Below are positions 7,173 to 64,000 of a stretch of 64,000 nucleotides of DNA, in pieces. Location: contig CAWCQX010000003.1 in the NCBI GenBank assembly GCA_963797855.1, positions 10,642 through 74,641 of the forward strand. The letters run 5' to 3'. This DNA comes from an uncultured Chloroflexia bacterium. GTDB lineage: Bacteria > Chloroflexota > Limnocylindria > QHBO01. Positions within the stretch are counted from its first letter, which is position 1, and every line of letters begins with the position of its first letter. Below the pieces are notes generated by a model. The model worked only from the letters and a program-made list of their open reading frames with translations. It was not told the origin of the DNA and ran no database searches. The translations under genes and the position numbers were made by a program.

Positions 7173-7765
7173 ATGAGCAGCCGCATCGACGAGCTGGACG
7201 CCATCGTCCGCCGGTTCGACCTGAACGATCATCCCTTCTACACCGAGTGGCGCGCCGGCACGCTGCCGGTCGAGCGCCTTGCCGAGTACGCGGACGAATG
7301 GGCGCCCTTCATCGGCGCGGTCGACGCGGGCTGGGAGCGGATCGGGTACCCCGCCTACGCCGCCGAGGAGCGCGAGCACGACGAGCTCTGGAGCCGCTTC
7401 CGCGGCGCGCTCGGCGCGACCGGCGAGATGCGACGCCCGCAGTCGCGCACGCTTGCTGGCCGTGGGCGAGAACGCGTTCGCATCGGTCCCTGAGGCGCTC
7501 GGAGCGCTGTACAGCTTCGAGGTCCAGCAGCCGGCCACCGCGAGCTCGAAGCTCGCCGGTCTCCGCGAGCACTACGCCGGGACGGTCGACGCCGACGCGC
7601 AGCAGTACTTCGTCGAGCATGCGGTCGAGACCGATGAGCCGGCGATGCTCGCCGCGCGGATCGACGCGCCTGACCGACGGCGAGTTCGCTCGGGCGAAGA
7701 CGGCCTGCGCGATCTTCAGCGCGGCGGCGTGGGGTGCCCTGGACGGGGTCTACTACACCGACTGA
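7173..7765 (+). pseudogene. Heme-oxygenase-like (PqqC/TenA/CADD-type) protein; frame broken at ~7454 and ~7679 (pseudogene or assembly indel)
   Basis: Three frames join into one product: MSSRIDELDAIVRRFDLNDHPFYTEWRAGTLPVERLAEYA...SRTL / LAVGENAFASVPEALGALYSFEVQQPATASSKLAGLREHYAG...AARIDA / LTDGEFARAKTACAIFSAAAWGALDGVYYTD*. HPFYxxW is typical of the PqqC/CADD fold. Confidence 0.6.
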
Positions 7766-7775
7766 CCGGCGCCGC

Positions 7776-8165
7776 TCAGCCGCGGCGGTTGCTGAACTCG
7801 ACCGACCAGCGCCAGGCGCTTCCGTCCTCGGCATTCCACCAATGGGTGAGGATCCCGGCCTCGCCGCCGGGGAGGATCACGATGGCGCCGAGGTCCGCCT
7901 GGGTCGGCCAGCGATCCTCGCGCGTGATCTCTTCGCCGTCCAGGGCGAATCGGGTCATCGGGAGGTACTTGGCCTTGCGTGCCAGTCCCTCCCCGCGCGC
8001 GACGACGCGGTCGTCGCCCTGGCGCACGGTCACCGCGACCTTGCGCGGGACCGAGTGTGCCCACACGACGTCGTGCGGATCGATGCGGGCGCGTGCCAGT
8101 GGGAGGCCCGTCGCACCCGCTCCGGGGTACCACAGCTCCCAGGTGTGCAGCTCGTCGTAGGCCAT
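7776..8165 (-). CDS. Hypothetical protein (129 aa)
   Basis: Intact ORF, MAYDELHTWELWYPGAGATGLPLARARIDP...WNAEDGSAWRWSVEFSNRRG, with coding-like composition. It lies directly downstream of the acetoacetyl-CoA synthetase on the same strand. No family recognised. Confidence 0.55.
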   Translation of the reverse strand: MAYDELHTWELWYPGAGATGLPLARARIDPHDVVWAHSVPRKVAVTVRQGDDRVVARGEGLARKAKYLPMTRFALDGEEITREDRWPTQADLGAIVILPGGEAGILTHWWNAEDGSAWRWSVEFSNRRG

Positions 8166-8191
8166 CCGGCAATCCTACGCTGCGCGTCCGA

Positions 8192-10159
8192 TCAGACGCC
8201 CGACCGGCGAGCTCCACGAACGGATCGAGCGAGGTCGGATCGGCGAGCGAGCCGCGCGAGGCGGCCTCGTCGGCCGGCGTTCCGGTGAGGATCCGCTTCA
8301 CCGGCACTTCGAGCTTCTTGCCGGACAGCGTGCGCGGGATCGCGGGCACGGCGAGGATCTCGTCCGGCACGTGGCGCGGGGACAGCGCCGCATCGCAGCT
8401 CGTCGCCGATGCGCGCGCGCAGCGCATCGGTCAATGCACCCCCGTCACGCAGGGCGACGAACAGGAGCAGCCGGTCGCCGGCGTCGAGATGGACGACGAG
8501 CGAGTCGGCGATCTCGGGCAGGCCCTCGACGACGGCGTAGAACTCGGCCGTCCCGACCCGCACCCCACCGCGGTTGAGCGTCGCGTCGGACCGCCCGCTG
8601 ATGACGCATGAACCGCGCTCGGTGAAGGTGATCCAGTCGCCGTGGCGCCACACGCCGGGGAAGTCGTCGAAGTAGGCCGCGCGGTAGCGCGAGCCGTCGG
8701 GGTCGTTCCAGAACCCGACGGGCATCGACGGCATCGGCCGGGTGATGACGAGCTCTCCCTGCTCGCCGACGATCGGGCGGCCCTCTGGATCGAACGCCTC
8801 GACGGCACAGCCGAGGTGGCGACAGCTGATCTCGCCCTCCCAGACCGGGACGAGCGGAGACGCACCGACGAACGCCGTGCACACGTCGGTGCCGCCGGAG
8901 ACCGACTGGAGATGGACCGATGGGCTGACCGCCTCGTAGACGTAGCGGAACCCCTCCGCCGGCAGCGGCGCGCCGGTCGAGCCGATCCCTCGGAGCCGCG
9001 ACAGGTCGACGAGCTCGCCCGGCTGCAGGCCCTCCTTGCGGCAGGCCATCAGGTACGGCGCCGATGCCCCGAAGTAGGTGACGCCCTCCTCGGCGGCCAG
9101 CTGCCAGAGCGCCCCGAGGTCCGGATGGGCCGGCGACCCGTCGTACAGGACGATGCTCGCGTCGACGGCGAGCCCCGAGACGAGGTAGTTCCACATCATC
9201 CAGCCGGTCGTGCTGAACCAGAAGAACCGATCCGCCGGCCCGAGATCGTGATGCAGCGCATGGATCTTCAGGTGCTCGAGCAGGATGCCGCCGTGCCCGT
9301 GGACGATCGGCTTCGGCAGCCCGGTCGTTCCCGACGAGTAGAGGACGAAGAGCGGGTGATCGAACGGCACCGGCTCGAAGCGCAGGTCGCCCTCGTCCGC
9401 GGCCAGCTCGTCCCAGGTCATCGCGTCGTCGACGCCGGACGCATCGGTCCGGAGGTAGGGGAGGATCACGGTCGCGGCGAGGCTCGGGAGCGCAGCGCGG
9501 ATGGCGGCCACCTCGGCGCCGCGGTCCACCTCGCGCTCCCCGTATCGGTAGCCGTCGACCGCGAGGAGCACCTTCGGCTCGACCTGGCTGAATCGGTCGA
9601 CGACCGATCGCACGCCGAACTCGGGCGCGCAGCTGGTCCAGGTCGCCCCCAGCGAAGCCGTGGCGAGCAGCGCGACGACGGCCTCGGGGACGTTCGGCAG
9701 GTAGCCGGCGACGCGGTCGCCACGGCCGACCCCGAGGCCCTCGAGCCCGGCGCGCACGCGACCGACCTCGGCGCGCAGCTCGTCGGCGGTCAGGGTCATC
9801 CGATCCCGCGTCTGCGAGCGCGCGACGACCACCGTGTCCGACCCGAGACGGCCCGCCAGGCGCAGGCAGTGCTCGGCCCAGTTCAGGTGCGCGGTCGGGA
9901 ACCAGCGCGCGCCGGGCATCGTCTCGTCGGCCAGCGCCGGCCCCGAGTGGGTCTCCGAGGAAACCTCGAAGTGATCCCAGATCGAGCCCCAGAAGGCGTC
10001 GAGGTCGCTGGTCGACCAGCGCAGGAGATCGTCATAGCCGGCGAAGCGGAGCCCGCGCTCGCGCCAGAGCCAGTCGAGGTAGGCGCCGATGCGGGTCGTG
10101 GCCCGCACGTCGGGGTCGGGCGTCCAGAGGATCGGGGGCACTGGCATCCGTTCGATCAT
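8192..10159 (-). pseudogene. Acetoacetyl-CoA synthetase (AMP-forming acyl-CoA ligase); frame broken at ~8392, 3' end ambiguous
   Basis: N-terminus PILWTPDPDVRATTRIGAYLDWL, AMP motif LYSSGTTGLPKPIVHGHGG, GSTGAPLP. After RIGDELR the conserved C-terminus (ALSPRHVPDEILAVPAIPRTLSGKKLEVPVKRIL) continues in the frame of ORF 7753-8427. Confidence 0.85.
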
Positions 10160-10176: not shown

Positions 10177-12307
10177 ATGCTCGGACCGATGCTCACGTGG
10201 GCGCTGCCCGCCTTGTTCTCTGCGCTGGTCGCCGGGGGCGCCGCGCTGCCGCCTCCGGGCCCGCTCGCCGTCGTCCACGTGCCCGACGAGCCGGGGGCGA
10301 TCGTCCTGCCCGATGGCGCGCCCACGCTCCAGGCGGTGGCCGCCGACCTCGACGCGGATGGCGCGCCGGAGGTCGTGCGCCTCGTGGCCGGAGACAACGG
10401 AACGGTCTGGATCGAGGCCTGGGTGCAAGGCGGCGAGGGCTGGGTGCTGATGGCGGCTCCGGCGCTGGCCGTGCCGGGACCAGCCGGGCAGGGCGAGGCC
10501 GCCTACGCTCGACGCCCGGCGCGACTGCTCGTCCGGCAGATCGGCGGGCGAGATCGGGTCACGCTCGTGCGCCAGCCGTTGTTCTCCGGGCCGGAGGATG
10601 AGCGCGAGTGCTGCCTCCTCATCGATGACCTCGTCGTCGATCGCAATACGCTCCGCCTCGAGACCGTCGCCGATCCGTCCGATCCCGTCGCCGACGCGGT
10701 GCACGTCATCGATCTCGACGGCGACGGGACCGACGAGCTGCTCGCCTCGTACTTCCTCGCCCCGCTCAACGATGCCAGCAGCCTGACCGAGGCGCGGGTC
10801 TTCCGCTGGGCCGGCGACCACTTCGCGTTGCTGACGACCGGCCGGCTGCCCGTCGGCTCGGGCAGCTCCCCCTTCGTCCTCGGCGACAGCGATGGCGTTC
10901 CGGGCGACGAAGCGGCCTTCATCAGCAGCTCCGCTCTCGACGTGCTGTTCCGGATCCGCCTCGATCACGACACGCTGATCACCGAGGACTCCGGCCTCAT
11001 CGTCGACGACGCGCTGGCGGTGCCGCTGAGCGCCACGAGCCGCGGACTCGCCGTGCTCGCCCCGAGGTTCGGCCTCGCCGTCCTCTCGTGGCCACCTGGC
11101 GGTCAACCCAGCGACCCGATTGCCGCGCAGCCGATCCACAGCGCGCGACTCCTCGGCGTCGTCGACATCGGCGGCGCCCCACGGCTGCTCGTGCACCGCA
11201 CCGATCCGGACGAGCTCGAGATTCGCGCCCTGCCCGACCTGACTCCGACTCTTCCGCGCGGGCCGATCGCCCCGAGCCAATCGGCCGCCACCCTCGGCCG
11301 CGGACCGCTCTTCCCGTATGTCGGTCCGCTGCCCGGAGGCGGACCCCACGGCGCGTTCTCGGCAATCGTCGCCGGCAGCCTCATCCCGGCGCAGGTCCTC
11401 GACGACCCGGCTGCCCCGATCGGTGCGCTGGCGGCCGCCCGGCCGATCGGCCTCGTCGGTCGTGACCGCGCGTGGCTGGCGATCCAGCAGGGTGCCATCG
11501 GCCTGCCTCCGCTCGACCCAACGGGTGGGCGCCTCGACCCGCCCGCCATCCGAGCCGGCGTCGGCCGTGGCGATCGTCCCGATCGACGTGGCGACGAGAC
11601 CGGAGGGAAACGGTGGTGCCTACGATCCCGCGATCCAGGGCGGCGTCGCGCTGGCCGACGGCGTGATCGGTGTCGACCGGGACGGCCTCGTGGCCGATGT
11701 CGTCGCGCCGCCCGGCTCGCGCGTCTACCTGCCGGGCCGAGACGAGCCCGAGAGACCCGAGGTGCTCGTGGTCGGCGATGACGGCGCGCTCGACGTCAGG
11801 ATCGAGGTGCCCGCCGGCGTCACGGCCGACGCGGACGGGGCGGCGACGATGACCGTCGTCACCCCAGCCGGCCACGCCTATACCAGCTCGTGGGACCTGC
11901 GGCTGGTGGACGGGCCCCCGGACATCCGCGCCACGGCCGAGACGACGCTCGGCTCGTCACGAGTGATCGTCGCGGGCCGCGCACCCCCGTACGCGGAGGT
12001 CGAGGTCGCCGGGAAGGTCGTGGCCGTCGACGAGCAGGGTCGGTTCTCGACGAGCGTCGACCTGCCTCCGTGGCCGACCGCGGTCACGGTCAGCGCCCGG
12101 GACCCGATCGGGCACGAGGCGAGCCTCATCGTCAGCGGCATCGGGATCCTCGACTACCGAGGGCTTCCCTGGCTGCCGATCGCGCTCGTCCTCCTTGGTG
12201 GCGTCGCCGTCGCGCTGATCCTGCGTGTCCCGAAGCCACGCTCGGCGCCGCGCTCGATCGGGGACGACGCGGTCCTCGAGGAGATCGATCCGGCCGACCC
12301 GCCCTAG
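10177..12307 (+). pseudogene. Secreted, C-terminally anchored FG-GAP/VCBS-like repeat protein with Ig-like domain; frame broken at ~11550-11575
   Basis: Signal-like N-terminus MLGPMLTWALPALFSALVAGGAA and Ca-binding-like DLDADGAPE and DLDGDGTDE loops. The second frame (ORF 11318-12307) supplies an Ig-like segment (VIVAGRAPPYAEVEVAGKVVAVDEQGRFSTSV) and the TM anchor WLPIALVLLGGVAVALIL. Confidence 0.55.
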
Positions 12308-17217: not shown

Positions 17218-18105
17218 TCCACGACCCTCCGACGCCGCAGGACGTCGAAGAGGAGATCGGCGAGCTCGATGTCCGCGGGGACCTGGACGTACGCCCCGCC
17301 GCGCTTGCTCACGAACGAAGAGATCTCGGCCTGCCACTCGGCGAGTCGCGTGCGGTAGCGCTCGACGAGGTCGTCGTCGCCGGAGACCTCGACGGCGTGG
17401 CCGGTCTCGTTGTCGACCAGGCGCGCGTCGGGCGGCACCTCCGGCTCGATCTCGTCCGGCGCGAGCAGGTGCAGCACGGAGAGCTGGGATCGGGTGCCGG
17501 CCAGGTCGCGCAGCGCGTCGAGGTAGCCGGGGTCCATGAGGTCGCTGATCAGGATGAGCGGGCCGCTGCCGCGCATCCGCGACGCGTAGGCGCGCGCCGC
17601 CGACGCCAGCCCCGTGAGCCGCTCGGTGCGCGGCTCGGAGAGGAATCGGAACAGCTCGAGCGCCCGCCGCTTGCCGCGGAGCGGCCGCATCCCGCTGGAG
17701 GCGCCGTCACCGAGGAACGCGACGCTGACGCGATCCATGCTCGCGAGCCCGAGGTATCCAAGCGCGGCCGCCGCCCGCCGTGGCGGCATCGAGCTTGTTC
17801 GGCTCGCCGTAGTCCATGCTCCGGCTCGCGTCGACGAGGATGTGGACGGTGACGTCCTCCTCCTCGACGAAGAGCTTCACGAAGAGGCGCTCGAGCCTCG
17901 CGTACGCGTTCCAGTCGAGCTGGCGCAGGTCGTCGCCGGCGGTGTAGTTGCGGTAGTCGGCGAACTCGACGCTCTGGCCGCGCCGCACGCTGCGCCGCTC
18001 GCCCTTCATCCGCCCGGCGGTGAGGCGGCGCGAGGCCAGCTCGAGCTGCTCGAGCCGGCGGAGGAAGGCCTCGTCGAAGAACGGTGCGCGCTCGGTGGCG
18101 GTCAT
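17214..18105 (-). pseudogene. DUF58 family protein; frame broken at ~17781 (apparent extra A)
   Basis: GQSVEFADYRNYTAGDDLRQLDWNAYARLERLFVKLFVEEED and ILVDASRSM are DUF58 signatures. The join KLDAA / RRAAAALGYLGLASMDRVSVAFLGDG links ORFs 17707-18105 and 17214-17789. Confidence 0.8.
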
Positions 18106-18155: not shown

Positions 18156-19186
<1,031 letters not shown>

Positions 19187-27611: not shown

Positions 27612-28699
27612 GTGAGCGTCTCGAGGACGCGCCGGCGGCTGGACGAGCTGGCCGCCCGACACGGGCTGCACCTCGTCGGCGTCACGAGCGCCGAGCCGAT
27701 GCCTGCCGACCGCGATCGGATGGAGGAGAGCGTCGCCGCCGGCCGGATGGGTCGGATGGGCTGGATGGGCGGCTCGCGGCCGGCGCAGGCAACCGATCCT
27801 CGCCGGCATGACCCGGAGGCGCGGTCGGTCATCACCGTTGCCGCGCCGTACGTCGGGGCCGAGCGCGCCGCGTGGGACGACCGGCCCGGGGCACTCCACG
27901 AGGCGCTCGCGCCGGTCCTCGCCGGTGCGCCGGCGCGAGCCCGCCGGGCGGATCGCCCGCTACGCGATCGGCAGCGACTACCACGGCGCCCTCCGCGGGC
28001 GCCTCGAAGGGCCTTGCCGCCGACCTGCGGGCGTCGGGGATCGCGGCGGGCGAAACCGCCTACGTCGACGACCGGCCGCTGGCCGAGCGCGCGCTCGCCG
28101 CGCGCGGCGGTCTCGGCTGGATCGGCAAGAACACGAACCTGCTCACCCACGAGCGCGCCGGCTCCTGGGTCTTCCTCGGCGCGATCCTCACCTCCGCCGA
28201 GCTGCCGGCCGACGCACCGGTGCGCACGTCATGCGGCTCGTGCACGCGGTGCCTCACCGGCTGCCCGACGGGTGCGCTCGTCGCGCCGCGGACGATCGAC
28301 GCCCGGCGCTGCATCAGCTATCTCACGATCGAGCATCCCGGGGTCCTCGACGCGTGGGAGGCGGGAGCGATCGGCGACTGGATCTTCGGCTGCGACGTGT
28401 GCCAGGAGGTCTGCCCGGTCAATGCCGACGCCGACGACTCCGGCCCGCTCCGCGTCCCGCTGCTGCCGCTCATCGAGTGGCTCCTCCCGATCGGCACGCG
28501 CGCCTTCGAGCGCGCGTTCGCCGCGACGGCGCTCACGCGGGCGGGCCGCCATCGCCTCCTGCGGAATGCGATCGCGGCGCTCGGGAATGCCGGTCCGCTG
28601 ACCGATGACGGGCGTGCGCTCCTGGAGCGGGCTGCGCGCGACCGGCGGGAAGAAGTCCGGGCACAGGCCGCGGGCGTCCTGGCGGCCGCGACGGCCTGA
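27612..28699 (+). pseudogene. queG: Epoxyqueuosine reductase; frame broken at ~27937 and ~28010
   Basis: GRIARYAIGSDYH, GLGWIGKNTNLLT, ferredoxin-type clusters CGSCTRCLTGCP and CDVCQEVCP, and a HEAT-like C-terminus. The pieces lie in three frames (ORFs 27270-28601, 27808-28608, 27872-28699). Confidence 0.8.
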
Positions 28700-31191: not shown

Positions 31192-32133
31192 TCAGGTTGC
31201 GCGCCAGAACAGCCAGGCGTCGCGCATCCGCTGGACCTGGCCCGGGGTGAACTGCGTGATGCACGAGTCGTCCGAGTAGTCCATGTAGTTGTGGATCGGG
31301 TCGAGACCCGGAGCCGGGCAGGTGTCCTTGCCCTCGGGCAGCCGGACGTCGCGGACTTCTGGGGCGGCGTGTCGCTGACGAAGTCGCCGTTCTTGTTGCA
31401 CTGCCCGAAGAAGGTGTGCTCGAGGTTCAGCCAGTGGCCGGCCTCATGGGTGAGCGTGTCGCCCTCATCGGAGACGCCTGCGTATTCGGTCGAGACGCCG
31501 GGCATCGTCCGCCAGTCGATCACGATGCCGTCGAGGTAGGCCTGGGCGGTGTCGGTGATCTCGGGCAGATACGCGTAGCCGAGAAGGGCTCCGCCGCTCG
31601 TCGAGTAGACGTTGAGGGCGTTATCGCCACCCTGCTTCAGCGCTCGCTTCATGTCGTGCTCGGCGCCGGCTGACTGGGACCTGATACCAGACGGCGTTGT
31701 TCGTGCGGGTGACGCCGGAGAGCGAGAACGTGAAGCCGGTGGCCGCCCCACCCTCGCCGCCGCTGAAGCCACGGTTGATCGCGCTGATCTGGCTGTGGAT
31801 CTGCGCATTCGTGACGGCGCCCGCGGCACCGTCCGTCACGACGTGCCAGTACACCGGGACGGTGACCGAGAAATTGCTCGGCGCGCGGCCCTTGGCCGCC
31901 TTCGGGAGGTCGTGAACGACCTGGGCTGTGTCCTTGTCGCGGACAAGACCGTGGCTGTCGACCGACCCGCCTCGGGCTTCGGCGCTCGCGCCCGCGGCAG
32001 CGGCGATCTCATCCGGAGAGCACGCCCAGGCGGGCGCGCCATTCCCCGCGGGCGACGCCGTGGCCGGGCCGGCCAGCGAGAGGGACAGGGCGGCCGACGC
32101 GAACAGGGTCAGGGCGCGACGTACGACGGTCAT
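31192..32133 (-). pseudogene. Secreted M43-family (pappalysin/ulilysin-like) zinc metallopeptidase; frame broken at ~31678 and ~31335
   Basis: Signal peptide MTVVRRALTLFASAALSLSLAGPATA. Zinc site [15 protein letters not shown]-terminus [39 protein letters not shown] is recovered in a third frame (ORFs 31621-32148, 31074-31829, 31192-31401). Confidence 0.75.
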
Positions 32134-35971: not shown

Positions 35972-38387
35972 CCAGCGCGCCCCCGCGCGGCGTCGTCGGC
36001 CTGCTGACCGCCCAGGCGCTCGCCTTCGGGGTCACCCTCGCGCTCCTGGTCATCCCCGCCAACGCGCTGTTCCTCGACGCGTACGGGTCGGAGTGGCTGC
36101 CCGCGACGTACATCGCCACCGCCGTCGTCGGCAGCCTCGCGTCGATCTTCATCGCCCGAGCGGCCCGCCATACCCGACTCGTTCGCCTGGCGACGGTCAC
36201 GCTCGGCGCGCTCGCCGCCGTGTACGCCGCGTCGTGGGTGATCCTCGTCGCCGGTGGCGTCTGGGTCTCGGCGGTCCTGCTCGTCGCGTTTCCGATCGCG
36301 CTCCAGCTTGGCTTCGTGTTCATCGGTGGCCAGGCAGGCCGGCTCCTCGACGTGCGGCAGATGAAGGAGCGCTTCCCGCGCATCGTGTCGGGGTTCGCGG
36401 TCGGGTTCTTCCTCGGCGGCCTGCTGGGGATCCCGCTCCTCTCGCTGCTTGGCTCGACCGAGCAGCTGATGCTCGCCACGACCGCCGCCGACATCGCGTT
36501 CCTCGGCCTCCTGATCGCCACGGAGCGCCGGTTCCCGGAGATCCGCGAAGCCCCGGCCGGCGAGGGGCCGGCGGTCGCGCGGCCGCCGTTGCGGACGCTC
36601 TTCGCTCCGGGCATCGTCCTGCTCCTGCTCATCTACCAGATCCTGTCCGCGATGGGGTCGCAGGTGTTCGACTTCCTCCTCTTCGACCGCGCCGCAACGC
36701 AGTACAGCGGGGATGAGCTCACCAAGTTCCTCTCCGCCTATACCGCGGTGCTCAACCTCGTCGACATCCTCTTCCTCGCGATCCTCGCCGGTCCGCTGAT
36801 GCGGCGATTCGGACTGCGTCTCGGCCTCGTCTTCAATCCCGCCGTCGTCAGCGTCGTGCTCGCCGTGATGACCGTGATCGCCACGGGGGGTAGCTCGGCA
36901 GCGTTCGGGCTCTTCGTGCTGGCCGGCGCGCTTCGCATCGCCGACATCGCGGCGACCGATGGAACGACCCGCACGTCGATCAATGCGGCGTTCCAGGTCG
37001 TTCCGATCGGCGAGCGCCTCGCGGTGCAGGCGGTCGTCGAGGGTGTCGGCGTGCCCGTCGCGATCGGCGTGACCGGGGTCATCCTCCTCGGGCTGAACAT
37101 CCTCGATCTCGGGATCGGTGCGGTGATCGTGTTCGGCCTCGTGCTCTCGGTCATCTGGACGGGAATCGCCGTCGGGGTGTATCGGTCGTACCGGCGAACG
37201 CTCGCCGCCCAGATGCGCCGGCGCTCGCTCCTCGCGGGTGCGGTTGGATTCGCCGAGGACGAGGCCTCGCTTCGCGAGCTCCTCCGGTCAACCGACGTTC
37301 GAGACGTTCGCCTCGGCCTCGACCTGCTTGCCGGCGTCGAGTCCGAGACATCCGGAGCCGACCTCCAGCAGCTGGCCGACCATGCCGATCCCGAGGTCCG
37401 CGTGCAGGGCACTCGTCGAGCTCGCCGTCCCGCGGAGACGCGGGGGCGGCCGCGGAGGTCGCGCCGCTCGTCGCCAGCCTCGCCGGCTCGGCCGAACCCT
37501 CGGACCGGCGCGCCGCCGCCGTGGCGATGGGCGCTCGAGGCGTCGTCGCCGACGATCGGACCGTCCTCATCGGCCTCCTGGGAGATCCGGACCGGACGGT
37601 GCGCGCCGCCGCGCTCGATGCCGTGGCGCCCGAGGATGGCGCGGACGAACGGGTGATCCGTCACGTGGTCGCAGCGATGGGAGAGCCACGCACCGCCGGA
37701 CCGGCGGCCGACGCGCTGAAGCGGCTGGGCGAGCCGGCCATCCCGTTCCTGGTCGCTGCGCTCGCCGGCGAGCACGGGCCAAGGCGGCCGTGCCTCGTCC
37801 GGGCCGCGGCCGGAGCCGCGGCCACGCACGGCGTGACGATCATCGCGCCGGCGCTCCGCGACCCGGATCGGGACGTCGTCCTCATCGCCCTCGAGGCATT
37901 GGACGCGGCCGGCGGCGCCGACGTCGTCCTTCCGGTGATCCTCGACGACATCTTCCGCGACGCGGCAGCGCATGCGGCGCGCGCGCAGGCGGCGCGAGCC
38001 GCCATCGAACCAACCGATGACCCGCTCCATCGAGCACTGGACGACGAGCTCGAGCTTGCGCGAAGGCTCGTCATCGCCGTGCTCGCGCTGCGGCACGGCG
38101 ATCGGGTCCGTGAGGCCGTTCGGGTCGCGGATTTCGCGGACGGACAACGCCGCGCGCTCGGAGTCGAGGCGCTCGAGGTGATCCTCTCCCGCGAGGAGGC
38201 CGAGGTCGTCCTCCCGCTCGTCCGGCGCGAGATCAGGAAGGGTGCCTCGCTGCGAGCCGCGGAGATCGGGCGCAGCCGGGAGCAGTGGGTCGCCGACATC
38301 GTCGCCGACCCGGACGCGGTCTGGCGCTCGTCGTGGCTCGCCGCGTGTGCCCGCCATGCATCCGCGCGGGCGGGAGACCCGGGATGA
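35968..38387 (+). pseudogene. Multi-TM NTT(ATP/ADP-translocase)/MFS-like transporter fused to HEAT repeats; frame broken at ~37406 and ~37428
   Basis: The first ~430 aa carry ~12 hydrophobic segments (LLTAQALAFGVTLALLVIPANALFLDAYGSEWLPATYIATAVV...). The C-terminal half has HEAT-like repeats DPEVRV(R)ALVELA, DPDRTVRAAALDAV, RDPDRDVVLIALEAL. Pieces are ORFs 35968-37656, 37238-38020 and 37521-38387. Confidence 0.65.
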
Positions 38388-43012: not shown

Positions 43013-43089
43013 GTCCCCGTAGCTCAGTGGATCAGAGCAGCCGCCTTCTAAGCGGCCGGTCGCAGGTTCGAATCCTGCCGGGGACGCCA
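43013..43089 (+). tRNA. tRNA-Arg (anticodon UCU), CCA encoded
   Basis: GTCCCCG acceptor stem pairs with CGGGGAC. D-arm TAGCTCAGTGGATCAGAGC. Anticodon stem GCCGC/GCGGC with loop CTTCTAA. T-arm GGTTCGAATCC. Ends in GCCA. Confidence 0.9.
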
Positions 43090-49867: not shown

Positions 49868-50987
49868 GTGGCGGTCGAATCCAACCAGCCGGGGAGGGCG
49901 ACGCTGGGAGTCGAGGAAGCGCCGCCAGCCGTGCGCCTCGAGGGGGTCACGAAGCGCTTCGGTGACGTCGCCGCCGTCGCGGGCATCGATCTCGAGATCG
50001 CCGACGGCGAGTTCTTCAGCATGCTCGGGCCGTCAGGGTCCGGAAAGACGACGACCCTTCGGATGATCGCCGGATTCGAGGTCCCGACCGAGGGCTCGAT
50101 CCAGCTCCACGGACGTGACGTGACCGGCGTGCCGCCGTTCGACCGTGACATCAACACCGTCTTCCAGGACTACGCCCTCTTCCCGCACATGACCGTCGGC
50201 GACAACGTCGCCTACGGCCTGGTGGTGCGTGGGGTCGCCGAAGTCGGAGCGCAACACGCGGGTCACCGAGGCGATGCGCATGGTGCGTCTCGAGGGATAC
50301 GAGGCGCGCCGCCCGGGCCAGCTGTCAGGCGGTCAGCGGCAGCGGGTCGCGTTGGCGCGCGCGCTGGTGAACCGCCCGCGCGTGCTGCTGCTGGACGAGC
50401 CGCTCGGCGCCCTCGACCTGAAGCTGCGCGAGGAGATGCAGATCGAGCTCAAGGCGATCCAGGCGCAGGTGGGCATCACGTTCATCTACGTGACCCACGA
50501 CCAGGAGGAGGCGCTCACGATGAGCAACCGCCTGGCGGTCTTCAACCTCGGATCCATCGAGCAGATCGGGACGCCCGCAGATGTCTACGAGCATCCCGCC
50601 ACGACCTTCGTGGCGGGGTTCGTCGGGACGTCGAACCTCCTCACGGGAGACTCCGCACGAGCGGTCATTGGCGAGGACGGAGTCTTCACCGTCCGTCCGG
50701 AGAAGATCCGGATCGCCCAACCGGACGTGGAGCCAGCACCGGACGAGGGCTCTGCCCTCGGCACGATTCGAGAGGTCGTCTACATCGGACCGGACACGAG
50801 ATTCTTCGTGGCGCTGGACACGGGTGGGGAGCTCGTCGTCATGCGCCAGAACCAGGAAACCCTGTCGATGGAGGCGCTTGCGGCGCAGGGCCAGCGGGTC
50901 CGGCTGCTCTGGAAGCGTCGCCATGTGCTGAGCCTCGCCACGAGCGAGGACCCAATGGGGGACGCGGAGGAAGAGACGAATCCATGA
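49868..50987 (+). pseudogene. ABC transporter ATP-binding protein, PotA-like; frame broken at ~50235
   Basis: Walker [10 protein letters not shown] in ORF 49868-52150. After AYGLVVRG the protein continues in ORF 50229-50987: [40 protein letters not shown]. Confidence 0.85.
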
Positions 50988-53154: not shown

Positions 53155-53163
53155 GCGGATGCG

Positions 53164-53968
53164 ATGACCGAATCGCGCGTGGGTCCGCATCGGCCTCCGA
53201 GTCGCGACGATCCTCGTGCTCGGCTTCCTCTACCTGCCGCTGGTGATCCTCGGGATCTACGCGTTCAACGAAAGCCGGTCGCAGGCCTGGCCGCCGACCT
53301 CGTTCTCACTCGACTGGTTCATCGATGCCGCCGCCAACGCGGCCGTGCGACGGGCGCTCGTGAACTCGCTGATCGCGGCGACCGCGGCGACGGCGATCGC
53401 GCTCGTGCTCGGATCGCTGGCCGCGCTGGCTGTCCAGCGGTTCAAGTTCTTCGGGCGCGACACGATCTCATTCCTGTTCATCCTGCCGATCGCGCTGCCG
53501 GGCGTCGTGACGGGGATCGCGCTGCGCACGACCTTCCAGACGGCCGGCATCGACTTCGGGCTGATGACGATCGTCATCGGGCACGCCACGTTCTGCGTGG
53601 TCGTCGCCTTCAACAACGTGGTCGCCCGGCTGCGTCGCCTCCCGCGCTCGCCGGAGGAGGCATCCGCGGACCTCGGAGCCGACACGTGGACGACGTTCCG
53701 GCGCATCACGTTGCCCGGCCTGGGAACCGCGCTCCTCTCGGGTGCGCTGCTCGCGTTCGCGCTCTCGTTCGACGAGATCATCGTCACGAACTTCACCGCC
53801 GGCCCGGGGACGCAGACGATTCCGATGTGGATCTTCTCCGCGATCCAGCGCCCGCGGGAGCTGCCCGTGGTCAACGTCGTCGCGCTCGTGCTGATCCTCG
53901 TGTCGACGATCCCGGTCTACCTCGCCCAGCGCATCGGCAGCGCCGCTGAGGGTGGCGGCCGGTACTGA
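53164..53968 (+). pseudogene. ABC transporter permease, PotC-like; probable frame break at ~53175 (alternatively an intact CDS from GTG 53216)
   Basis: ORF 53216-53968 has EAA loop PEEASADLGADTWTTFRRITLPGL. The upstream in-frame sequence (AWVRIGLRVATILV) completes TM1 but has no start codon. ATG 53164 is in the adjacent frame. Confidence 0.75.
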
Positions 53969-54060: not shown

Positions 54061-55811
54061 TTGACCGCCACCCAGACCACGACTTCCACGCCCGCGTGGC
54101 GGGCCGCCGTCATCGGCATCGTCGCCGTCCTCGCCGTCGGCATCGGAATCGCCGTCGGCGCATTCCTCATGGGCGCGCGCGACGCAGCCATCGGCAGCGG
54201 AGCGAGCTATGTTCCCGCCACGGCGCCGATCTACTTCGAGGTGCGCCTCGAGCCCTCCGAGGCGCAGGACGCCGCCCTCCGAGAGTTCCTCGGCCGCTTC
54301 CCGGAGATCGAGGGCGTCGACCTGAGTCAGCCGCTCTACGGCCAGCTCACCGCGATGCTGGACGAGATGGTCGCCGCCACCGGCACCGACCTCAGCTGGT
54401 CGGCGGATGTCGAGCCATGGTTCGACGGCCGCGTCGGGGTGGCCCTGCTCGAGTTCCCGGACGAGGCGCTGGACCCGGCCATGCCCGAGACGGAGGTCTT
54501 CGGCAGCACGTCCGCGGTCGTCCTCGTCGCGATCACCGATCCGGTCGCGGCGCAAACGTCGCTCGAGCGAATCTTCGCGGAGTCCGAGGCCCCGGTCACG
54601 TTCACCGACCAGGAGCACGCCGGCGTGACGATCCACGTGGACGAGCAGTCGTCGGCCGCCTACGCGCTCACCGATGACCAGCTCCTCGTCGCGACGTCCG
54701 CGGACGACATCGTTGCCGCGCTGGACGCCCACGCCAACAGCTCGACCACGCTGTCGGAGGCGGACTCGATCACGGCCCTGACCGATGCGCTCCCCGACGA
54801 GTGGCTCGTCTTCGGCATCTACGACTTCACCGATGCGCTGGCGAGTGCCTTCGAGCGGTCCGGCGGCGGCCTCTCCCGGCGCGGACATCATGCGCGACCT
54901 GATGGCGAACCAGTCGCTGCGCGGAGCGATGGCGCTGACGGTCGACGGCGACCGCGTCAGCCTGCCGATGGTGAGCGATGCCCCGACCGGCCCGTTCACG
55001 GTCACGAACGCCGACCGCGGCCTCGCCGACGAGGTGCCCGGCGATGCCCTGTACTACGCCGAAGGCGGGAACGTCGGGGAGTCGTTGAGCAGCTTCGTCC
55101 GAACGTTCAAGGAGATGATGGGCACGATGCCCGATGGGGCCGGGCAGCTCGACATGGCCGAGGGCGCCCTCGGAGGGAACCTCGAGGAGCTCGTTGAATG
55201 GATCGGCGACGTCGCGACCGTCGGCGGCTTCGACGGCGAGCAGCCATGGGGCGGCGCGATCATCGTGCCGACCGACATGGAGGCAGGCGCGTCGCACGAT
55301 GGACCGGCTCGAAACCTTCGCCGGTCTCGCGACGCTCGATCCCTCGATCGGGATCACCGTCGACCAGCGGGACGTCGAGGGCGTCGAGATCACGAGCCTG
55401 ACCTGGCACGATCCGAACGCCGCAACCGAGCCCGATCCGGCGATGGCGTTCGCACCGACCGAGGTCGTCGTCGAGTGGGCCGTCACCGACGACCGCGTCC
55501 TGCTCGGCGTCGGCGACCAGTTCGTCGAGCGCGCGCTCGGCCAGGACGCGGCGGGTTCGCTGGCCGAGACCGCCGGCTACAGCGACGCGGTCGCCGACCT
55601 GGGTGGGTCGAGCAACGCCGGCGTGACCTGGATCGACCTGCGCGGCCTGCGGCTCGCGCTCGAGCCCACCTTCGCCGAGATGGACCCATCGGGGATGGAG
55701 ATGTACGAGACGGAGATCGTCCCGTGGCTCGAGCCCCTCGACCGATTCGTGTCGGTCGTGCACGTCGACGGTGACATCCTCCGCACCGACGCGGTCCTGC
55801 TCGTCGATTGA
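54061..55811 (+). pseudogene. N-terminally anchored extracytoplasmic protein of unknown function (DUF3352-like by recollection); frame broken at ~54875 and ~55292
   Basis: TM WRAAVIGIVAVLAVGIGIAVGAFLMG followed by a long soluble part. Three frames join: ...ALASAFERSGG / PGADIMRDLMANQSLRG...PTDMEAGA / RTMDRLETFAGLATLD...VHVDGDILRTDAVLLVD*. Confidence 0.45.
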
Positions 55812-57672: not shown

Positions 57673-57729
57673 CCCGCATTTCATGCTCCCGGCCAACGCC
57701 GGGCGGCGCCCCTGCCAGGGGCTGAGCCA

Positions 57730-57761
57730 CGACCGCCGAGGTGCCAATCTCTCGGCGGTCG
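57730..57761 (+). terminator. Hairpin, possible terminator after the HTH gene
   Basis: 11-bp stem CGACCGCCGAG / CTCGGCGGTCG with a 10-nt loop. The tail CCTCTTGTCC is only weakly U-rich. Confidence 0.35.
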
Positions 57762-57787
57762 CCTCTTGTCCCGCATAATCCGCGGCG

Positions 57788-58960
57788 ATGGCCGACGACC
57801 CGACCCAACGCCTGGATGAGGCTCGCAGGCTCCTCGACAGCGGCGAGCCCGATGCGGCCACCGCGATCGCGGAGCCCATCAGCCGGCATCCCGATCCCGA
57901 CGTCGCCGGCGAGGCCTGGCTGATCATCGGCATGGCTCGCTATCGGACCGATGACGAGCCGGGCGCCCTGATGGCGTGGCGGTCCGCAGCAGAGTCCGGC
58001 GGCCGAAGCGCGTGGCTCGGATGGCGGAGCGTCGCGGAACAGCTCGTCCGTGACGGCGACCTCGAGGGCGCCGTCACCGCGTACCGCGAGGCCGATCGCC
58101 GCGCTCCTCCGGCGGAGCGAGGCGCGATCGCCAACCGCATCGCGTGGCTGCTCAAGGAGACCGGCCACGACTTCGCCGCCCGGCGCCAGTTCAACCGGGC
58201 CCGTGGCGCCTACGCGACCCACACCCCGTACGTCACGTACGCGATCATCGCGATCTGCGTGGCGGTCTTCGTCGCCGATGCGATCCTCGCGAACGGCTCG
58301 ACGCTCGGCGGTGGGCTCTTCGGCGGTGGCGCCCTCGGCCCGATCGGCGAGGCGAACCTCATCAACGCCTTCGCCGTTGCCGACGGCGAGTGGTGGGTGA
58401 TCTTCACGAGCGCCTTCATCCACCTCAGCCCCCTCCACCTCGCCTTCAACATGTTCGTCCTCTACCAGTACGGCTCGCTCGTCGAGCGGATGTACGGACA
58501 CGTCGAATACGCGCTGATCTACCTGCTCTGCGCGGCGGGCGGCAGCGTCCTCACGATCCTCGTCGACCCCACCCAGTCGGCCGCGGGGGCGTCCGGCGCG
58601 ATCTTCGGCCTCGTCGGCCTGCTGTTCGTCGTCTCGCGACGCCATCACGCGGTGCTCGGGCGCGAGGCGCGGACGATGGTCGCGGGCATCGGCGGATTCG
58701 TCATCTACCTCCTCGTGTTCACCTTCGTGTTTCCCGGGATCAGCTGGACCGGCCACGTCGGCGGCCTGATCGTCGGCGCGGTGCTCGGCTTCTTCCTGCC
58801 ACCGACCGGCGTGGCCACGATGAGCGGGATGTGGCGCACGCCGAGCGGGGAGCGTCTGCACGGGTCGATGCCGGTCGCGCTTCGGCTGGCCGTCTACGCC
58901 GGTGTCGCCTTGGTGCTCGCGGTCGGGTCGTTCGTCGCGGTCGATCGCCTGATCGGCTGA
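57788..58960 (+). CDS. Rhomboid-family intramembrane serine protease with N-terminal TPR-like domain
   Basis: 390-aa intact ORF with FIHLSPLHLAFNM, the catalytic Ser motif GASGAIFGL, and the catalytic His context WTGHVGGLIVG. Confidence 0.85.
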   Translation: MADDPTQRLDEARRLLDSGEPDAATAIAEPISRHPDPDVAGEAWLIIGMARYRTDDEPGALMAWRSAAESGGRSAWLGWRSVAEQLVRDGDLEGAVTAYREADRRAPPAERGAIANRIAWLLKETGHDFAARRQFNRARGAYATHTPYVTYAIIAICVAVFVADAILANGSTLGGGLFGGGALGPIGEANLINAFAVADGEWWVIFTSAFIHLSPLHLAFNMFVLYQYGSLVERMYGHVEYALIYLLCAAGGSVLTILVDPTQSAAGASGAIFGLVGLLFVVSRRHHAVLGREARTMVAGIGGFVIYLLVFTFVFPGISWTGHVGGLIVGAVLGFFLPPTGVATMSGMWRTPSGERLHGSMPVALRLAVYAGVALVLAVGSFVAVDRLIG

Positions 58961-59002
58961 TCCGTCCGCCCGGCCGGGCACGCGTCATGCGATCCTGACG
59001 GC

Positions 59003-59764
59003 ATGTGCTTCGACGATGACGCCCGACCACCCCTCCCGCCGATCCGCGGCGGGGCCATCGATGCCCGAGACGTTCGCCTGACGAGCGCCGACGGGACCGA
59101 GTTCGCGGCCTACGCGGCCCGCGCCGACGCGCCGACCGGCGCCGGGATCGTGATCATCCCGGACGTCCGCGGCCTCCACCCGTACTACGAGGAGCTGACG
59201 CTGCGGTTCGCCGAGGCCGGCGTGCACGCCGTGTCGATCGACTTCTACGCCCGCTCCGCCGGCGGGGAGAAGCGGGCTGCGGGCTTCGAGTACGAGCCGC
59301 ACGTCCTCCAGCTGGATCCCGCGGCGATCGACGGCGACGTGGCCGCCGCCGTCGACTTCCTGCGCTCGGGCGAGGGCGGCGAGGCCGAGCGCCTCTACAC
59401 CGTCGGCTTCTGCATCGGGGGCCGGATCAGCCTGCTCCAGGCGCGGTCAGGCCTCGACCTGAGCGGCGTCATCGGCTTCTACCCCTGGCCGGTCGGAGCG
59501 CATCGCAGCGGCCTGCCCGCCCCCGCCGACGAGGCGTCGCGCTTCGGATGCCCGGTGCTCACGATCTACGGCGGGGCCGACGCGGGCATCCCGGCCGAGG
59601 CGCGGGAGGAGTTCGATCGCGCGCTCGAAGCGGGCGGCGTGGAGCACCACACGATCGTCTACGAGGGTGCGCCGCACTCCTTCTTCGATCGCAAGTCCGA
59701 GTTCGCCGAGGCCAACGCCGCCTCCTGGGACGAGGTCCTGCGCTTCATGGGCGTCTCGGCCTAG
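59003..59764 (+). CDS. Dienelactone hydrolase family protein
   Basis: 253-aa intact ORF with the Cys nucleophile elbow VGFCIGGRISL and C-terminal YEGAPHSFFD. Confidence 0.85.
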   Translation: MCFDDDARPPLPPIRGGAIDARDVRLTSADGTEFAAYAARADAPTGAGIVIIPDVRGLHPYYEELTLRFAEAGVHAVSIDFYARSAGGEKRAAGFEYEPHVLQLDPAAIDGDVAAAVDFLRSGEGGEAERLYTVGFCIGGRISLLQARSGLDLSGVIGFYPWPVGAHRSGLPAPADEASRFGCPVLTIYGGADAGIPAEAREEFDRALEAGGVEHHTIVYEGAPHSFFDRKSEFAEANAASWDEVLRFMGVSA

Positions 59765-59778
59765 GCCCGGACGCGAGA

Positions 59779-59811
59779 ACGCCCGCCGCGGCGACCGGCC
59801 GCGACGGGCGT
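59779..59811. terminator. Imperfect long hairpin between convergent genes
   Basis: ACGCCCG...CGGGCGT outer stem with an inner GC-rich pairing, lying between stops at 59764 (+) and 59827 (-). Confidence 0.35.
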
Positions 59812-59826: not shown

Positions 59827-60712
59827 TCAGGCGCCGACTGGCTTCTGCTCCGGGCTCGCCACGGGCGCGTCGCTCCGTCGGACGGGCCGGGTGTAGAGGT
59901 ACAGCACGACGACCACGTAGACCAGCCACACCGCGAGGGTGATCCACTCGGGGGTGCTCGTGTAGCCGAACATCGCCCGCAGGATCGAGCCCACGACCCC
60001 GAGCCCGCCGTCCGCGGCCTCGTGAGGCAGGATCGCGCTGATGTCGAACGCCGTGCCCGTCCCGATCGTGATCCAGCCGATCTCGACGAACTCGTGGACC
60101 GCGTGGGCGAGGAGCCCGGCCGCGATGAAGATCAGCGCGACGCCGGTCCAGAGGAAGAACGTGCGCAGGTTCAGCACCCGCGCGCCAACGTAGAGGCCGT
60201 AGCCGATGGCGGCGGCGAGCGCCAGGCCGACGATCGCGCCGACGAGCGTGCTCGACGCCTCCGCGCCGGCGGCCGTCGCCTGGCCCATGAGGAAGAGCGC
60301 CGTCTCGATGCCCTCTCGGATCACCGCCATGAAGGCGAGGACCGAGAGACCGAGGATGCCGCCGTTCATGAGGGCGCGGTCGACGCCGGCGTGCAGCTCA
60401 CCCTTGATGTTCATCGCGGTGCGCCGCATCCAGAACAGCATCCACGTGACGACGCTCGGCGGCGACGAGCATCGCGATGCCCTCGAAGATCTGCTCCGCC
60501 GGCTCCTCCAGCCCACCGATGGTGTTGAAGAGCACGAGCCCGATGACGACGCTGAGCGCGACGGCCGCGCCGGCCCCGAGCCAGATCTGCCCGAAGTACC
60601 GCTGATTCCCGGTCTTCGCGAGGTACGCCATGACGATGCTGACGATGAGGGCCGCCTCGACGCCCTCGCGCAGGCCGGTCAGCAGGCCTGAGATGAAGAA
60701 TCCGAAGTCCAA
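59827..60712 (-). pseudogene. FTR1/EfeU-family high-affinity iron permease; frame broken at ~60457
   Basis: Two RExxE motifs (LREGVEAAL and IREGIETALF). The join IAMLVAA / VVTWMLFWMRR links ORFs 60398-60712 and 59827-60516. Confidence 0.8.
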
Positions 60713-60889: not shown

Positions 60890-62088
60890 ATGATCGACTT
60901 TTCGCTGACCGATGCGCAGCGGGAGGTGCAGCGCACCGCGCGCGCCTTCGCCGAGCGCGAGATCCTGCCGCGCATCCGCGAGCTCGACGAGACGGCGACC
61001 TACGACCGCACGCTCTACGAGAAGATGGGCTCGGAGGGCCTTCTCGGCCTACCCGGTCCCGGAGCGCTACGGCGGCGCCGGAATGGACTACATCGCCTTC
61101 GCCCTGCTGTGCGAGGAGATGGAGCGAGCGGACACCGCCTTCCGGGTCATCCTCAGCGTCCACACCGGCCTGAACTCGCTCACGCTCCTCCAATGGGGCA
61201 GTCGAGGAGCAGAAGGAGAAGTACCTCGTCCCGCAGGCGCGCGGCGAGAAGCTGGCGACCTTCGGCCTGACGGAGCCCGGCGTCGGCTCCGATGCGGCGA
61301 ACCTCGCCAGCACGGCGCGGCGGGACGGCGACCGCTACATCCTCAACGGGTCCAAGATCTGGATCAGCCTGGCCGACACGGCCGACCACGTTCTCGTCTT
61401 CGCCAGCGTCGACCGCAGCAAGGGCCACCGGGGGATCACGGCCTTCATCGTCGAGCGCTCGTTCCCCGGGTTCAGCAGCGAGTCGCTCCACGGCAAGCTC
61501 GGCGTTCGCGCGGGGAATACGGGGATCCTCACCTTCGACGACTGCGAGGTGCCCGCCGCGAACCGGGTCGGGGAGGAGGGCGAGGGCTTCGCGATCGCGA
61601 TGAGCGCGCTGGACCAGGGCCGCTACACCGTCGCGGCGGGATCGGTCGGGCTGGCACGGGCGTGCCTCGACGCATCGGTCCGCTACGCGCACGAGCGCAA
61701 GACGTTCGGCAGCGAGATCGGCGAGCACCAGCTCGTGAAGCAGATGCTGGCGAAGATGGAGCAGGGGATCGAGGCCGGGCGCCTGCTCGTCTGGAAGGCG
61801 GGCTGGAAGAAGAACCGCGGCGAGCGCAACACCCGCGAGACGTCGCTCGCGAAGTGGTTCACGACCGACCATGCGGTGCAGTCCGCCATGGACGCCATCC
61901 AGGTCCACGGCGCCTACGGCTACTCGAACGAGTACCCGGTCGAGCGCTACCTGCGCAACAGCAAGGGATCGGTCATCTACGAGGGGACGTCGCAGATCCA
62001 CACGATCATGCAGGCCGATTACCTGCTCGGCTACCGCAAGGACAAGCCGTCGCGGATGCCGCAGCCGGCGTTCGAAGGGGAGATGTAG
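60890..62088 (+). pseudogene. Acyl-CoA dehydrogenase; frame broken at ~61052 and ~61203
   Basis: MIDFSLTDAQREVQRTARAFAEREILP / PVPERYGGAGMDYIAFALLCEEM...LLQWGS / [30 protein letters not shown]...[34 protein letters not shown]. Spread across ORFs 60731-61270, 60912-62120 and 61549-62088. Confidence 0.85.
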
Positions 62089-62097
62089 GTCGCCGCG

Positions 62098-62643
62098 TCA
62101 GGCCGGTGACTTGCGGCTGAGCCGATCGGCCAGGCCGCCGACGGTCAACGCCACGCCGAGCGCGAGGATGCCGATGGCGGCCACCACCCGGAAGGCCTCG
62201 CCGCCGAAGGCGGTGGCGAAGACGAGGTACGCGACGACGCCTCCGATGGCCAGGCCGGAGCCGATCCACTTGAAGGCCGGCGCATCGGCGATCCATCCGG
62301 CGGCGTACATCCCGAGGCCGAGGCTGAAGGGGAAGACGCTCCAGAGGTAGGCCCACGCGTTCCAGCGGTCCGTGAGGCTCGTGTAGAGCAGCGCACAACC
62401 GACGCCGGCGAGGAGCGCTCCGGGGATCACCATCCCCGCCCGCAGCCGCCGGTTCGGGCCCCCGACCAGGGCGGGCACGAGGAAGAACAGCGACAGGCCG
62501 ATGATGAGGACCGGCCACCATCGCAGCACGTCCTCGTCGATGCCGAGCCCACCGATGAAGTCGGCGAGGGGCTCGCTGGCGAGCAACAGGACGCCGACGA
62601 TGAGCAGCAGCAGCCCCGCCAGGAGCTCGATCGTGCGACTCAC
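62098..62643 (-). CDS. Hypothetical integral membrane protein (181 aa)
   Basis: Intact ORF with ~6 hydrophobic segments (LLAGLLLLIVGVLLLA, WWPVLIIGLSLFFLVPALV...). No family recognised. Confidence 0.55.
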   Translation of the reverse strand: MSRTIELLAGLLLLIVGVLLLASEPLADFIGGLGIDEDVLRWWPVLIIGLSLFFLVPALVGGPNRRLRAGMVIPGALLAGVGCALLYTSLTDRWNAWAYLWSVFPFSLGLGMYAAGWIADAPAFKWIGSGLAIGGVVAYLVFATAFGGEAFRVVAAIGILALGVALTVGGLADRLSRKSPA

Positions 62644-62666
62644 GAGGCCGAGTATACGGTGGCATC

Positions 62667-64000
62667 ATGCCGCGGATGCCCGCCCGGCCCGGCACGCGAA
62701 CGCTGCTCCACGCCCTCGGCCGGCGGCTGCCCCGGACGCGAGGGGCAATGGCGGTGGCGGGACTCGGCCACGAGGTCGTCGTCGATCGTGACCGATGGGG
62801 GATCCCGCACATCGAGGCCGGCGACGACGCCGACGCCTGGTTCGCGCTTGGCTTCTGCCACGGACAGGATCGCTCGTTCCAGCTCGAGCTGATCGCGCGC
62901 GCCGGCCGCGGCCGCCTGGCCGAGCTGCTCGGGCCGGGGGCGCTGCCGATCGACCGGCTCTCGCGGACGCTCGGGTTCCGCCGATTGGCGCTGGCCCAGG
63001 TGCGGACGCTCGACGCCGACGTCCTCGCCACGATCACCGCCTACGTCGCGGGCATCAACGCCGCGCGGACGAGCGCGCGACGGCCGCACGAGCTCGTGCT
63101 GCTCCGGGCGCAGCCCAGTGCCTGGACCGTCGAGGACGTGCTGGCATTCGACGGCCTCCAGTCGCTCGCGCTCGGCGGCAGCTGGGATAGCGACCTGGCG
63201 CGGCTCGCGATCCTCGACGCCGATGGCCCCGAGGCGCTGGCGGCCGTCGAGCCGCCATACGCCGCGTGGCAGCCGGCCGTGACGCCGACCGGCGGGCGGG
63301 CCGGCGAGCCGCTCGCTCGGCTCGCCGATGACCTGTCGCGGCTCCGCGACCTGGTCGGCGCGTCCGGCGGCTCGAATGCCTGGGCCGTCGCCGGACCACG
63401 GACCGCATCGGGCGCCCCGATCCTGGCCAACGACCCGCACCTCGGCCCGGCGATCCCGCCGCCGTGGTACCTCGCGCACCTGCGGACGCCGGGGTGGGAG
63501 ATCGCCGGCGCCTCGTTCGTCGGCGGGCCGGCGTTCCCGACCGGCTTCAACGGCCACGTGGCGTGGGGCATCACGGCCGGCTGCACGGACTCGTCCGACC
63601 TCTTCTGGGAGGAGCTCTCCGCCGACGGGCGGACCGCGCGCGGTCCCGATGGCCCGGAGCCGGTGGAGCGGATCGTCGAGTCGATCCCGGTGCGGGGCGC
63701 GACCGCGGTCGTCGAGGAGGTCCTCGTCACCCGGCGCGGCCCGATCGTGACCGCAGTCCTCGGGCAGCGGCCTCAGCCGGGCGCTCTCGATCAAGGCAAC
63801 GTGGCTCGAGCCACGGCCGGTGCGCGGCTTCCTTGGCGCGCAGCTGGCGCGCGACTTCGAGACGCTTCCGGGGCGCGTTCCGGTCGTGGCCGGGTCCGTC
63901 GCTGAATGTCGTCTACGCCGACGTCGAGGGCCACGTCGGCTGGCAGCTGGTCGGGACGCTGCCGCGGCGGCGGTCGGGGAGCGGGATGCTGCCGGTGCCG
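62667..64000 (+). pseudogene. Penicillin acylase (Ntn-hydrolase, S45) family protein, 3' truncated by window; frame broken at ~63775 and ~63869
   Basis: RDRWGIPHIEAG, FCHGQDRSFQLEL, and the nucleophile context GGSNAWAVAG. Later segments ALSIKATWLEPRPVRGF and WPGPSLNVVYADVEGHVGWQLVG lie in the other two frames. TATACG -10 sits 8 nt before the ATG. Confidence 0.8.

Follow-up and report, generated by a model that had tools for sequence, protein, structure and literature searches.

The stretch of DNA examined here, called the window throughout, comprises 64,000 nucleotides (nt; positions 10642 to 74641 of contig C3) of a metagenome-assembled genome (MAG) of 13 contigs, 1.43 Mb, and 71% GC, derived from a soil bacterium in the class Limnocylindria (Chloroflexota). 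The window encodes a MoxR-DUF58-VWA operon with ABC-2 exporter neighbors, a histidine kinase, a cNMP-linked MFS/HEAT protein, and the other genes named in Table 1, many of which are interrupted by single-base breaks in the reading frame. These breaks are the subject of this study. An initial annotation of the window had counted about 30 of them in about 19 genes and had offered two explanations, uncorrected assembly indels with locally varying quality or a gene decay in this lineage that spares some operons.

Results

Coding segments were mapped with a codon-usage log-odds score trained on the long open reading frames (ORFs) of the genome, and the coding signal was found to switch frame on both strands in turn, with no stop codon where the segments meet. 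The closest relatives in the catalogue are MAGs of uncultured Chloroflexota/Limnocylindria, of which three are Microflora Danica "MFD...bin" MAGs (L013, L017, and L018) and three were assembled with MEGAHIT from Illumina data, from which the related loci L014 to L016 derive. The ORFs of these six loci were searched against the window with tblastn and then aligned to it base by base over 13-31 kb and 39-42 kb, where each frame change in the window corresponded to one ORF in each relative. For the remaining window, fragments were joined conceptually into protein queries and searched against six genomes of the genus, and Pfam profile coordinates were followed across the frame changes; these carry on over the change of frame in DUF58, Peptidase_M43, ABC_tran, FTR1, Acyl-CoA_dh_N, and Penicil_amidase. 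All of the approximately 32 breaks exist and lie 0-25 nt from where they had been placed, and each is backed by at least one of the relatives' single open frames, Pfam coordinate continuity, or short-read contigs. Given the single frames in the relatives, which is what the proposed comparison with related genomes returned, and the Pfam continuity across the breaks, the observation itself is confirmed, with its coordinates refined by up to about 25 nt.

Most of the breaks (29 of 32) consist of one extra base in the window and the other three of one missing base (19703, 19719, and 31335), in agreement with the earlier description of mostly one extra base and less often a lost G. The inserted base is mostly C or G; some insertions fall within runs of two or three identical bases, and others stand beside no identical base. 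Among all breaks, the sites at 14157, 15417, 26775, and 31335 lie in CCC or GGG runs. No shared motif or slippery sequence was found at the break sites, and there was no k-mer enrichment around the junctions, GATC included, a test that rules out GATC or another methylation motif at these positions.

Logan contigs of independent soil and rhizosphere metagenomes, all Illumina data (runs X1, X2, X3, and X5 among them), served as the short-read evidence and contain 25-38% of the 31-mers of the window. The contigs were aligned to the window at a minimum identity of 96-98%, with a lower threshold for 8391, 12424, and 20865, and were joined by a metagenome contig from the Joint Genome Institute (JGI; L019) that is 96.2% identical to the window across 3.9 kb. 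In contigs 96-100% identical to the window, from at least four soil metagenomes plus the JGI contig, the extra base is absent at every break that is spanned (15 of 32). At an identity of at least 96-98%, indel differences in coding DNA are confined to the break sites, and the frame is restored each time: at 15552, 17780/2, 25433, 31334/5 (where the contigs are one base longer), 37404 together with a second gap, 39481, 60458, 61051/5, 61203, and 63763, and, at the lower identity threshold, at 8391, 12424, and 20865. The sole difference between a 112-nt X1 contig and the window is the extra base at 61051-61055, and the JGI contig shows indels within genes only at 60456 and 61055. A close-up of 15360-15620 revealed no break-spanning contig with the window's version; the contigs either lacked the base or were clipped there.

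The same junction detector applied to the whole genome returned approximately 880 frameshift-like junctions, or about one per 1.6 kb, including 679 of the +1 type. All 13 contigs carry them, at 3.2-9.3 per 10 kb, and the contig that contains the window is among the least affected. Essential single-copy genes are hit as well: the most conserved region of rpoC, which occurs once in the genome, passes through three frames in the space of 110 nt; secY likewise extends over three frames, whose Pfam coordinates are consecutive (23-209, 207-245, and 247-306); and the N- and C-terminal domains of rpoA are in different frames. A living cell cannot carry such breaks in rpoC, secY, and rpoA as true lesions. 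The lesions seen are single-base indels only. In-frame stop codons were counted by alignment, the genome-wide scan being noisy in that it picks up adjacent genes and antisense frames, and none was present in 30,705 aligned residues (116 high-scoring segment pairs) between the window and the proteins of its relatives. The fragments on either side of the breaks are 87-95% identical to their L017 orthologues, which equals the identity of intact neighboring genes.

The breaks had also been described as unevenly distributed, a claim that is marginal within the window, where their placement is close to random (longest clean gap, P = 0.09; coefficient of variation of spacing, P = 0.055). The only excess there is of close pairs, separated by fewer than 200 nt (7 observed versus 2.9 expected; P = 0.02), and GC content around the breaks is slightly higher (0.725 versus 0.713; P = 0.016). 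Across the genome, the junctions are over-dispersed, with an index of 2.1 in 5-kb bins; contigs differ three-fold in junction density, and junctions become mildly denser in GC-rich sequence (1.9 per 5 kb at 66-69% GC, 4.2 above 73%). Inside the window, the data lend weak support to the suggestion of locally varying quality. The genome-wide variation in density fits local differences in consensus quality, for which read depth and strain mixture are candidate causes.

Several indels were probably overlooked in the initial annotation (Table 1), among them indels in noncoding DNA and in a tRNA gene, which is what errors blind to position predict. In the window, the D-loop of tRNA-Arg(TCT) reads GGATCAGAGC, one base longer than in the contigs of three Illumina runs, and the extra base is probably another consensus error, in this case in an RNA gene. 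A tRNA-Arg(TCG) that ARAGORN places at 43032-43104 on the minus strand, overlapping the first, is probably spurious. At the 3' end of the acetyl-CoA synthetase gene (8167-8204), short-read contigs lack bases 8185, 8195, and 8204 and have a G added after 8167. The synthetase frame of the window stays open until 7756, whereas in the relatives the gene ends at about 8167-8204 and DUF7712 starts as a separate gene. At least one further error probably lies in this interval. An apparent synthetase-DUF7712 fusion near 8185 was rejected, since the two are separate genes in the relatives.

The lesions of the window are absent from all relatives compared. Elsewhere in the genus, MAGs with few contigs and low completeness (G003, L013, and L018) have breaks of their own at other sites, and no break with multiple support was found in the Illumina loci L014 to L016. 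The low completeness values of G003, G008, and G014 may partly stem from the same problem.

Table 1. Positions of the frame breaks and further indels. Coordinates refer to the window unless a contig or relative is named. X1, X2, X3, and X5 are short-read runs, G and L numbers are genomes of the genus and related loci, and BA marks breaks resolved by base-level alignment.
Feature	Gene or region	Position	Strand	Support
Frame break 1 (+1 type)	Haem-oxygenase-like, 7173-7762	7443..7456	+	Coding-score frame switch; joined query residues 1-197 in one spanning frame in G017 and G002
Frame break 2 (+1 type)	Haem-oxygenase-like	7664..7680	+	Coding score; relatives
Extra base	Acetyl-CoA-synthetase-like (AMP-binding domain match), 10159 down to ~8200	8391..8392	-	X1, X5 contigs 1 base shorter; relatives cross in one frame
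Frame break (+1 type)	FG-GAP/Ig-like surface protein, 10177-12298	11552..11565 (~11557)	+	Coding score; query residues 10-708 in single frames in G018, G017, G009
Extra base near 3' end	Double-VWA, 15341 down to 12307	12424	-	Illumina contigs 1 base shorter; single frame in six relatives
Extra C	Double-VWA	14157	-	Absent in L013, L014, L017, L018; BA
Extra base	BatA-VWA, 17358 down to 15266	15417	-	Relatives; X5 contig one base fewer; BA
Extra C	BatA-VWA	15552	-	Relatives; X5 contig (at least 98% alike) 1 base shorter; BA
Extra base inside DUF58 domain	DUF58, 18141 down to 17244	17781..17783	-	Relatives; X2, X5 contigs 1 base shorter; BA at 17781; Pfam DUF58 positions 1-53 and 74-214 in different frames
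Missing base	Repeat-rich coiled-coil, ~21255 down to 19190	19703	-	Relatives; BA, ambiguous because the region is repetitive
Second missing base	Repeat-rich coiled-coil	19719	-	BA
Extra C	Repeat-rich coiled-coil	20866	-	Relatives; all four Illumina runs 1 base shorter at 20865; BA
Extra G	DUF7408 protein, ~25650 down to 23158	25247	-	Relatives; BA
Extra G	DUF7408 protein	25435	-	Relatives; X1 contig (at least 98% alike) 1 base shorter at 25433; BA
Extra C	Histidine kinase, 25693-27607	26775	+	638-residue ORF intact in L013 to L018; BA
Extra base	Fer4_16 (QueG-like), ~27630-28660	27936	+	Relatives; Pfam; BA
Extra A	Fer4_16 (QueG-like)	28007..28008	+	Relatives; BA at 28007
Missing base	Peptidase_M43, 32145 down to 31204	31334..31335	-	X1, X5 contigs one base longer; G003 single frame; Pfam M43 positions 66-104 and 126-150 in different frames
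Frame break (+1 type)	Peptidase_M43	31670..31678 (~31674)	-	Coding score; relatives
Extra base	MFS/HEAT transporter-like, 35968-38345	37404..37406	+	X2, X5 contigs 1 base shorter; G003 single 884-residue frame
Second extra base, 22 nt downstream	MFS/HEAT transporter-like	37428	+	Three-frame reading; X2 contig over 37234-37460 with 2 gaps versus the window
Extra C	FAD_binding_4 oxidase, ~40360 down to 39021	39093	-	Relatives; BA
Extra G	FAD_binding_4 oxidase	39481	-	Relatives; X1 contig 1 base shorter; BA
Frame break (+1 type)	Inside ABC_tran ATPase domain	50228..50240 (~50235)	+	Pfam positions 3-79 and 81-136 in different frames; coding score
Frame break (+1 type), five codons in	Second ABC permease, start 53164	53175..53180 (~53178)	+	Three-frame reading; relatives align from the joined protein's first Met, one 287-residue frame
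Frame break (+1 type)	DUF3352, 54031-55805	54873..54878 (~54875)	+	Coding score; relatives (single 584-641-residue frames in six)
Second frame break (+1 type)	DUF3352	55282..55296 (~55290)	+	Coding score; relatives
Extra base	FTR1 iron permease, 60724 down to 59830	60456..60458	-	X1 contig 1 base shorter; L019 without the base; Pfam FTR1 positions 5-84 and 86-279 in different frames
Extra base	Acyl-CoA dehydrogenase, 60890-62085	61051..61055	+	X1 contig; L019 without the base; Pfam Acyl-CoA_dh_N positions 1-47 and 47-91 in different frames
Second extra base	Acyl-CoA dehydrogenase	61203	+	X1, X2, X3 contigs 1 base shorter; Pfam
Frame break (+1 type)	Penicillin amidase, from 62655	63763..63775	+	X1 contig 1 base shorter at 63763; three-frame reading; Pfam
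Second frame break (+1 type)	Penicillin amidase	63860..63870 (~63867)	+	Three-frame reading; Pfam Penicil_amidase positions 1-298 and 333-377 in different frames
Extra base	Noncoding	7148		X1 contig ~98.5% alike, 1 base shorter
Indel	Divergent-promoter spacer	40366		X1, X5 contigs 1 base shorter; X3 has an added T
Extra base in D-loop	tRNA-Arg(TCT), 43013-43089	43032..43033	+	Three Illumina runs 1 base shorter
Breaks in ribosomal/RNA-polymerase region	rpoC 115225, 115336; secY 97532, 97656; rpoA 93181; Clp-type ATPase 133498; IspDF 129045	C5:92,000-135,000		
Relatives' own breaks	G003: synthetase, DUF7712	G003:C16:12179-15176; L013:4558; L018:2860/16072		L013, L018 of +1 type

Discussion

The frame breaks of the window are, in our firm judgment, residual single-base consensus errors of an unpolished long-read MAG and not the product of decay or recoding. 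Spurious insertions, for the most part, would have been left in a long-read metagenome consensus that was never polished with accurate reads, and the genes would be intact in the living population. Low read depth and high GC content may set the local density of errors. The assembly of the window was presumably made from long reads only, as were the Microflora Danica Nanopore MAGs closest to it in the catalogue; this is suggested by its 13 contigs of 44-207 kb, its completeness estimate of 54.65%, and the relatives themselves.

That long-read assemblies contain gene-fragmenting indels was reportedly highlighted by Watson and Warr in 2019. Such indels are a recognized property of long-read assemblies (PMC12007338), and the errors of Nanopore and PacBio assemblies resemble those of the window in that single-base indels split conserved genes into neighboring ORFs in separate frames, occur genome-wide, and are absent from short reads. 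The Microflora Danica long-read MAGs are Nanopore-only assemblies made with Flye and polished once with Medaka, and their authors noted Nanopore-associated errors in the MAGs of lower coverage (PMC12313526). The closest catalogued relatives of the window (L013, L017, and L018) come from that catalogue, and two of them show the same +1 kind of break. The authors of that survey tied reduced coding density to archaeal MAGs of low GC content and rich in homopolymers, whereas the window comes from a high-GC bacterium.

Several points weigh against attributing the breaks to sequencing. The short-read contigs come from other samples rather than from the source of the window, and breaks crossed by such a contig number only about 15 of the 32; elsewhere contigs can be clipped at the break, such that only the spanning contigs speak against the window's version. 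The sequencing platform was inferred rather than read from the assembly's own record or reads. The rpoB gene is intact, although this is compatible with chance. Finally, the classic residual error of Nanopore sequencing is the homopolymer deletion, and the window differs from it in its strong insertion bias, mostly outside long homopolymers, at 71% GC.

The alternative that survives best, though we regard it as unlikely, is a mixture in which errors make up most of the breaks, with a few genuine frameshifts, strain-specific or phase-variable, among them; the candidates lie in short G/C runs or in the putative accessory segment at 31-39 kb described below. Such a mixture would accommodate the four sites in CCC or GGG runs and could draw on the 17 of 32 sites that have no spanning short-read contig, but short reads point to error at each of the 15 sites where they allow a test, including 31335 and 37404 within the accessory segment, and the sites without a spanning contig are not distinguishable from the 15 tested. 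The more specific proposal that a minority of breaks in the C/G runs of the MoxR-VWA operon or in the tRNA-Glu-linked segment are real strain-level or phase-variable frameshifts has, in our view, a very slim chance of being correct; if true, some surface or signaling genes would be switchable in this uncultured Limnocylindria lineage.

We consider it very improbable that genuine reductive evolution, in which the lineage gathers frameshift pseudogenes while some operons stay intact, explains the breaks. Decay would account for breaks that are truly in the record, for clean stretches of 7-10 kb, and for a genome bin of a small 1.43 Mb, but it is contradicted by the genome-wide spread of about 880 junctions with rpoC, secY, and rpoA among the genes hit, by a lesion spectrum of single-base indels with an insertion bias of 29:3 and no nonsense codons, by conservation that is untouched on both sides of the breaks, and by the fact that neither a relative nor any short-read contig of 96-100% identity shares them; the clean gaps, moreover, are within chance (P = 0.09). 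True pseudogene-rich genomes under reductive evolution are known from Mycobacterium leprae and recent endosymbionts, and many conserved genes are interrupted there as in the window. In true decay, however, one finds nonsense mutations, deletions, insertion sequence insertions, essential genes that are spared, relaxed conservation, and lesions shared within the lineage, none of which holds here. Between the two explanations first offered, uncorrected assembly indels are therefore strongly supported, and a lineage-specific decay that spares some operons is contradicted. Programmed recoding, with the frame restored by +1 ribosomal frameshifting, quadruplet decoding, or slippage during transcription, is scarcely conceivable despite the single (+1) direction of nearly all breaks, given that the sites have no common motif or slippery sequence, lack conservation (each relative is free of the extra base and has the protein in a single frame), and have counterparts of the same kind in noncoding DNA and in a tRNA gene.

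The affected genes, among them those of the MoxR-DUF58-VWA operon, its ABC-2 exporter neighbors, the histidine kinase, and the cNMP-linked MFS/HEAT protein, should be regarded as intact and analyzed in frame-corrected form. About a third of the genes in the window are split by sequence errors, and probably 40-50% of the genes genome-wide, and therefore the gene calls, domain architectures, "pseudogene" labels, and the completeness estimate of this genome are unreliable. Other results based on this genome, or on the remaining MAGs of the genus that have few contigs and low completeness, call for the same caution, especially if one of them serves as a species representative. This class of artifact is ordinary and well known, and the value of the result lies in a data-quality warning for annotations rather than in new biology.

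Additional observations in the window

Two apparent breaks were rejected: the one at about 22190 is a true gene boundary, and the one at about 40450 is the antisense image of a divergent DAO gene.

The region at 31027-39021 looks like a tRNA-linked accessory segment. These approximately 8 kb start from tRNA-Glu(CTC) and are missing at the syntenic site of L013, where about 30956 is joined to about 39021, and L017 has no match to the window past tRNA-Glu(CTC). The segment contains genes for an M43 peptidase, a STAND-type cyclase, a cNMP-binding protein, the MFS/HEAT protein, and RibD_C; of six genus genomes, G003 alone has the M43 and MFS/HEAT genes, and there they lie on different contigs.

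Some element within 47000-59800 is shared with human-associated data; a highly conserved gene or a stretch resembling a contaminant may account for this. Over the AAA_3 ATPase core of MoxR and an ABC ATPase (18339-19005 and 23008-23674), the summed depth of short-read contigs reaches 2,000-5,500, compared to about 50 elsewhere, which is a pile-up of conserved P-loop sequences from many soil organisms and not a matter of copy number.

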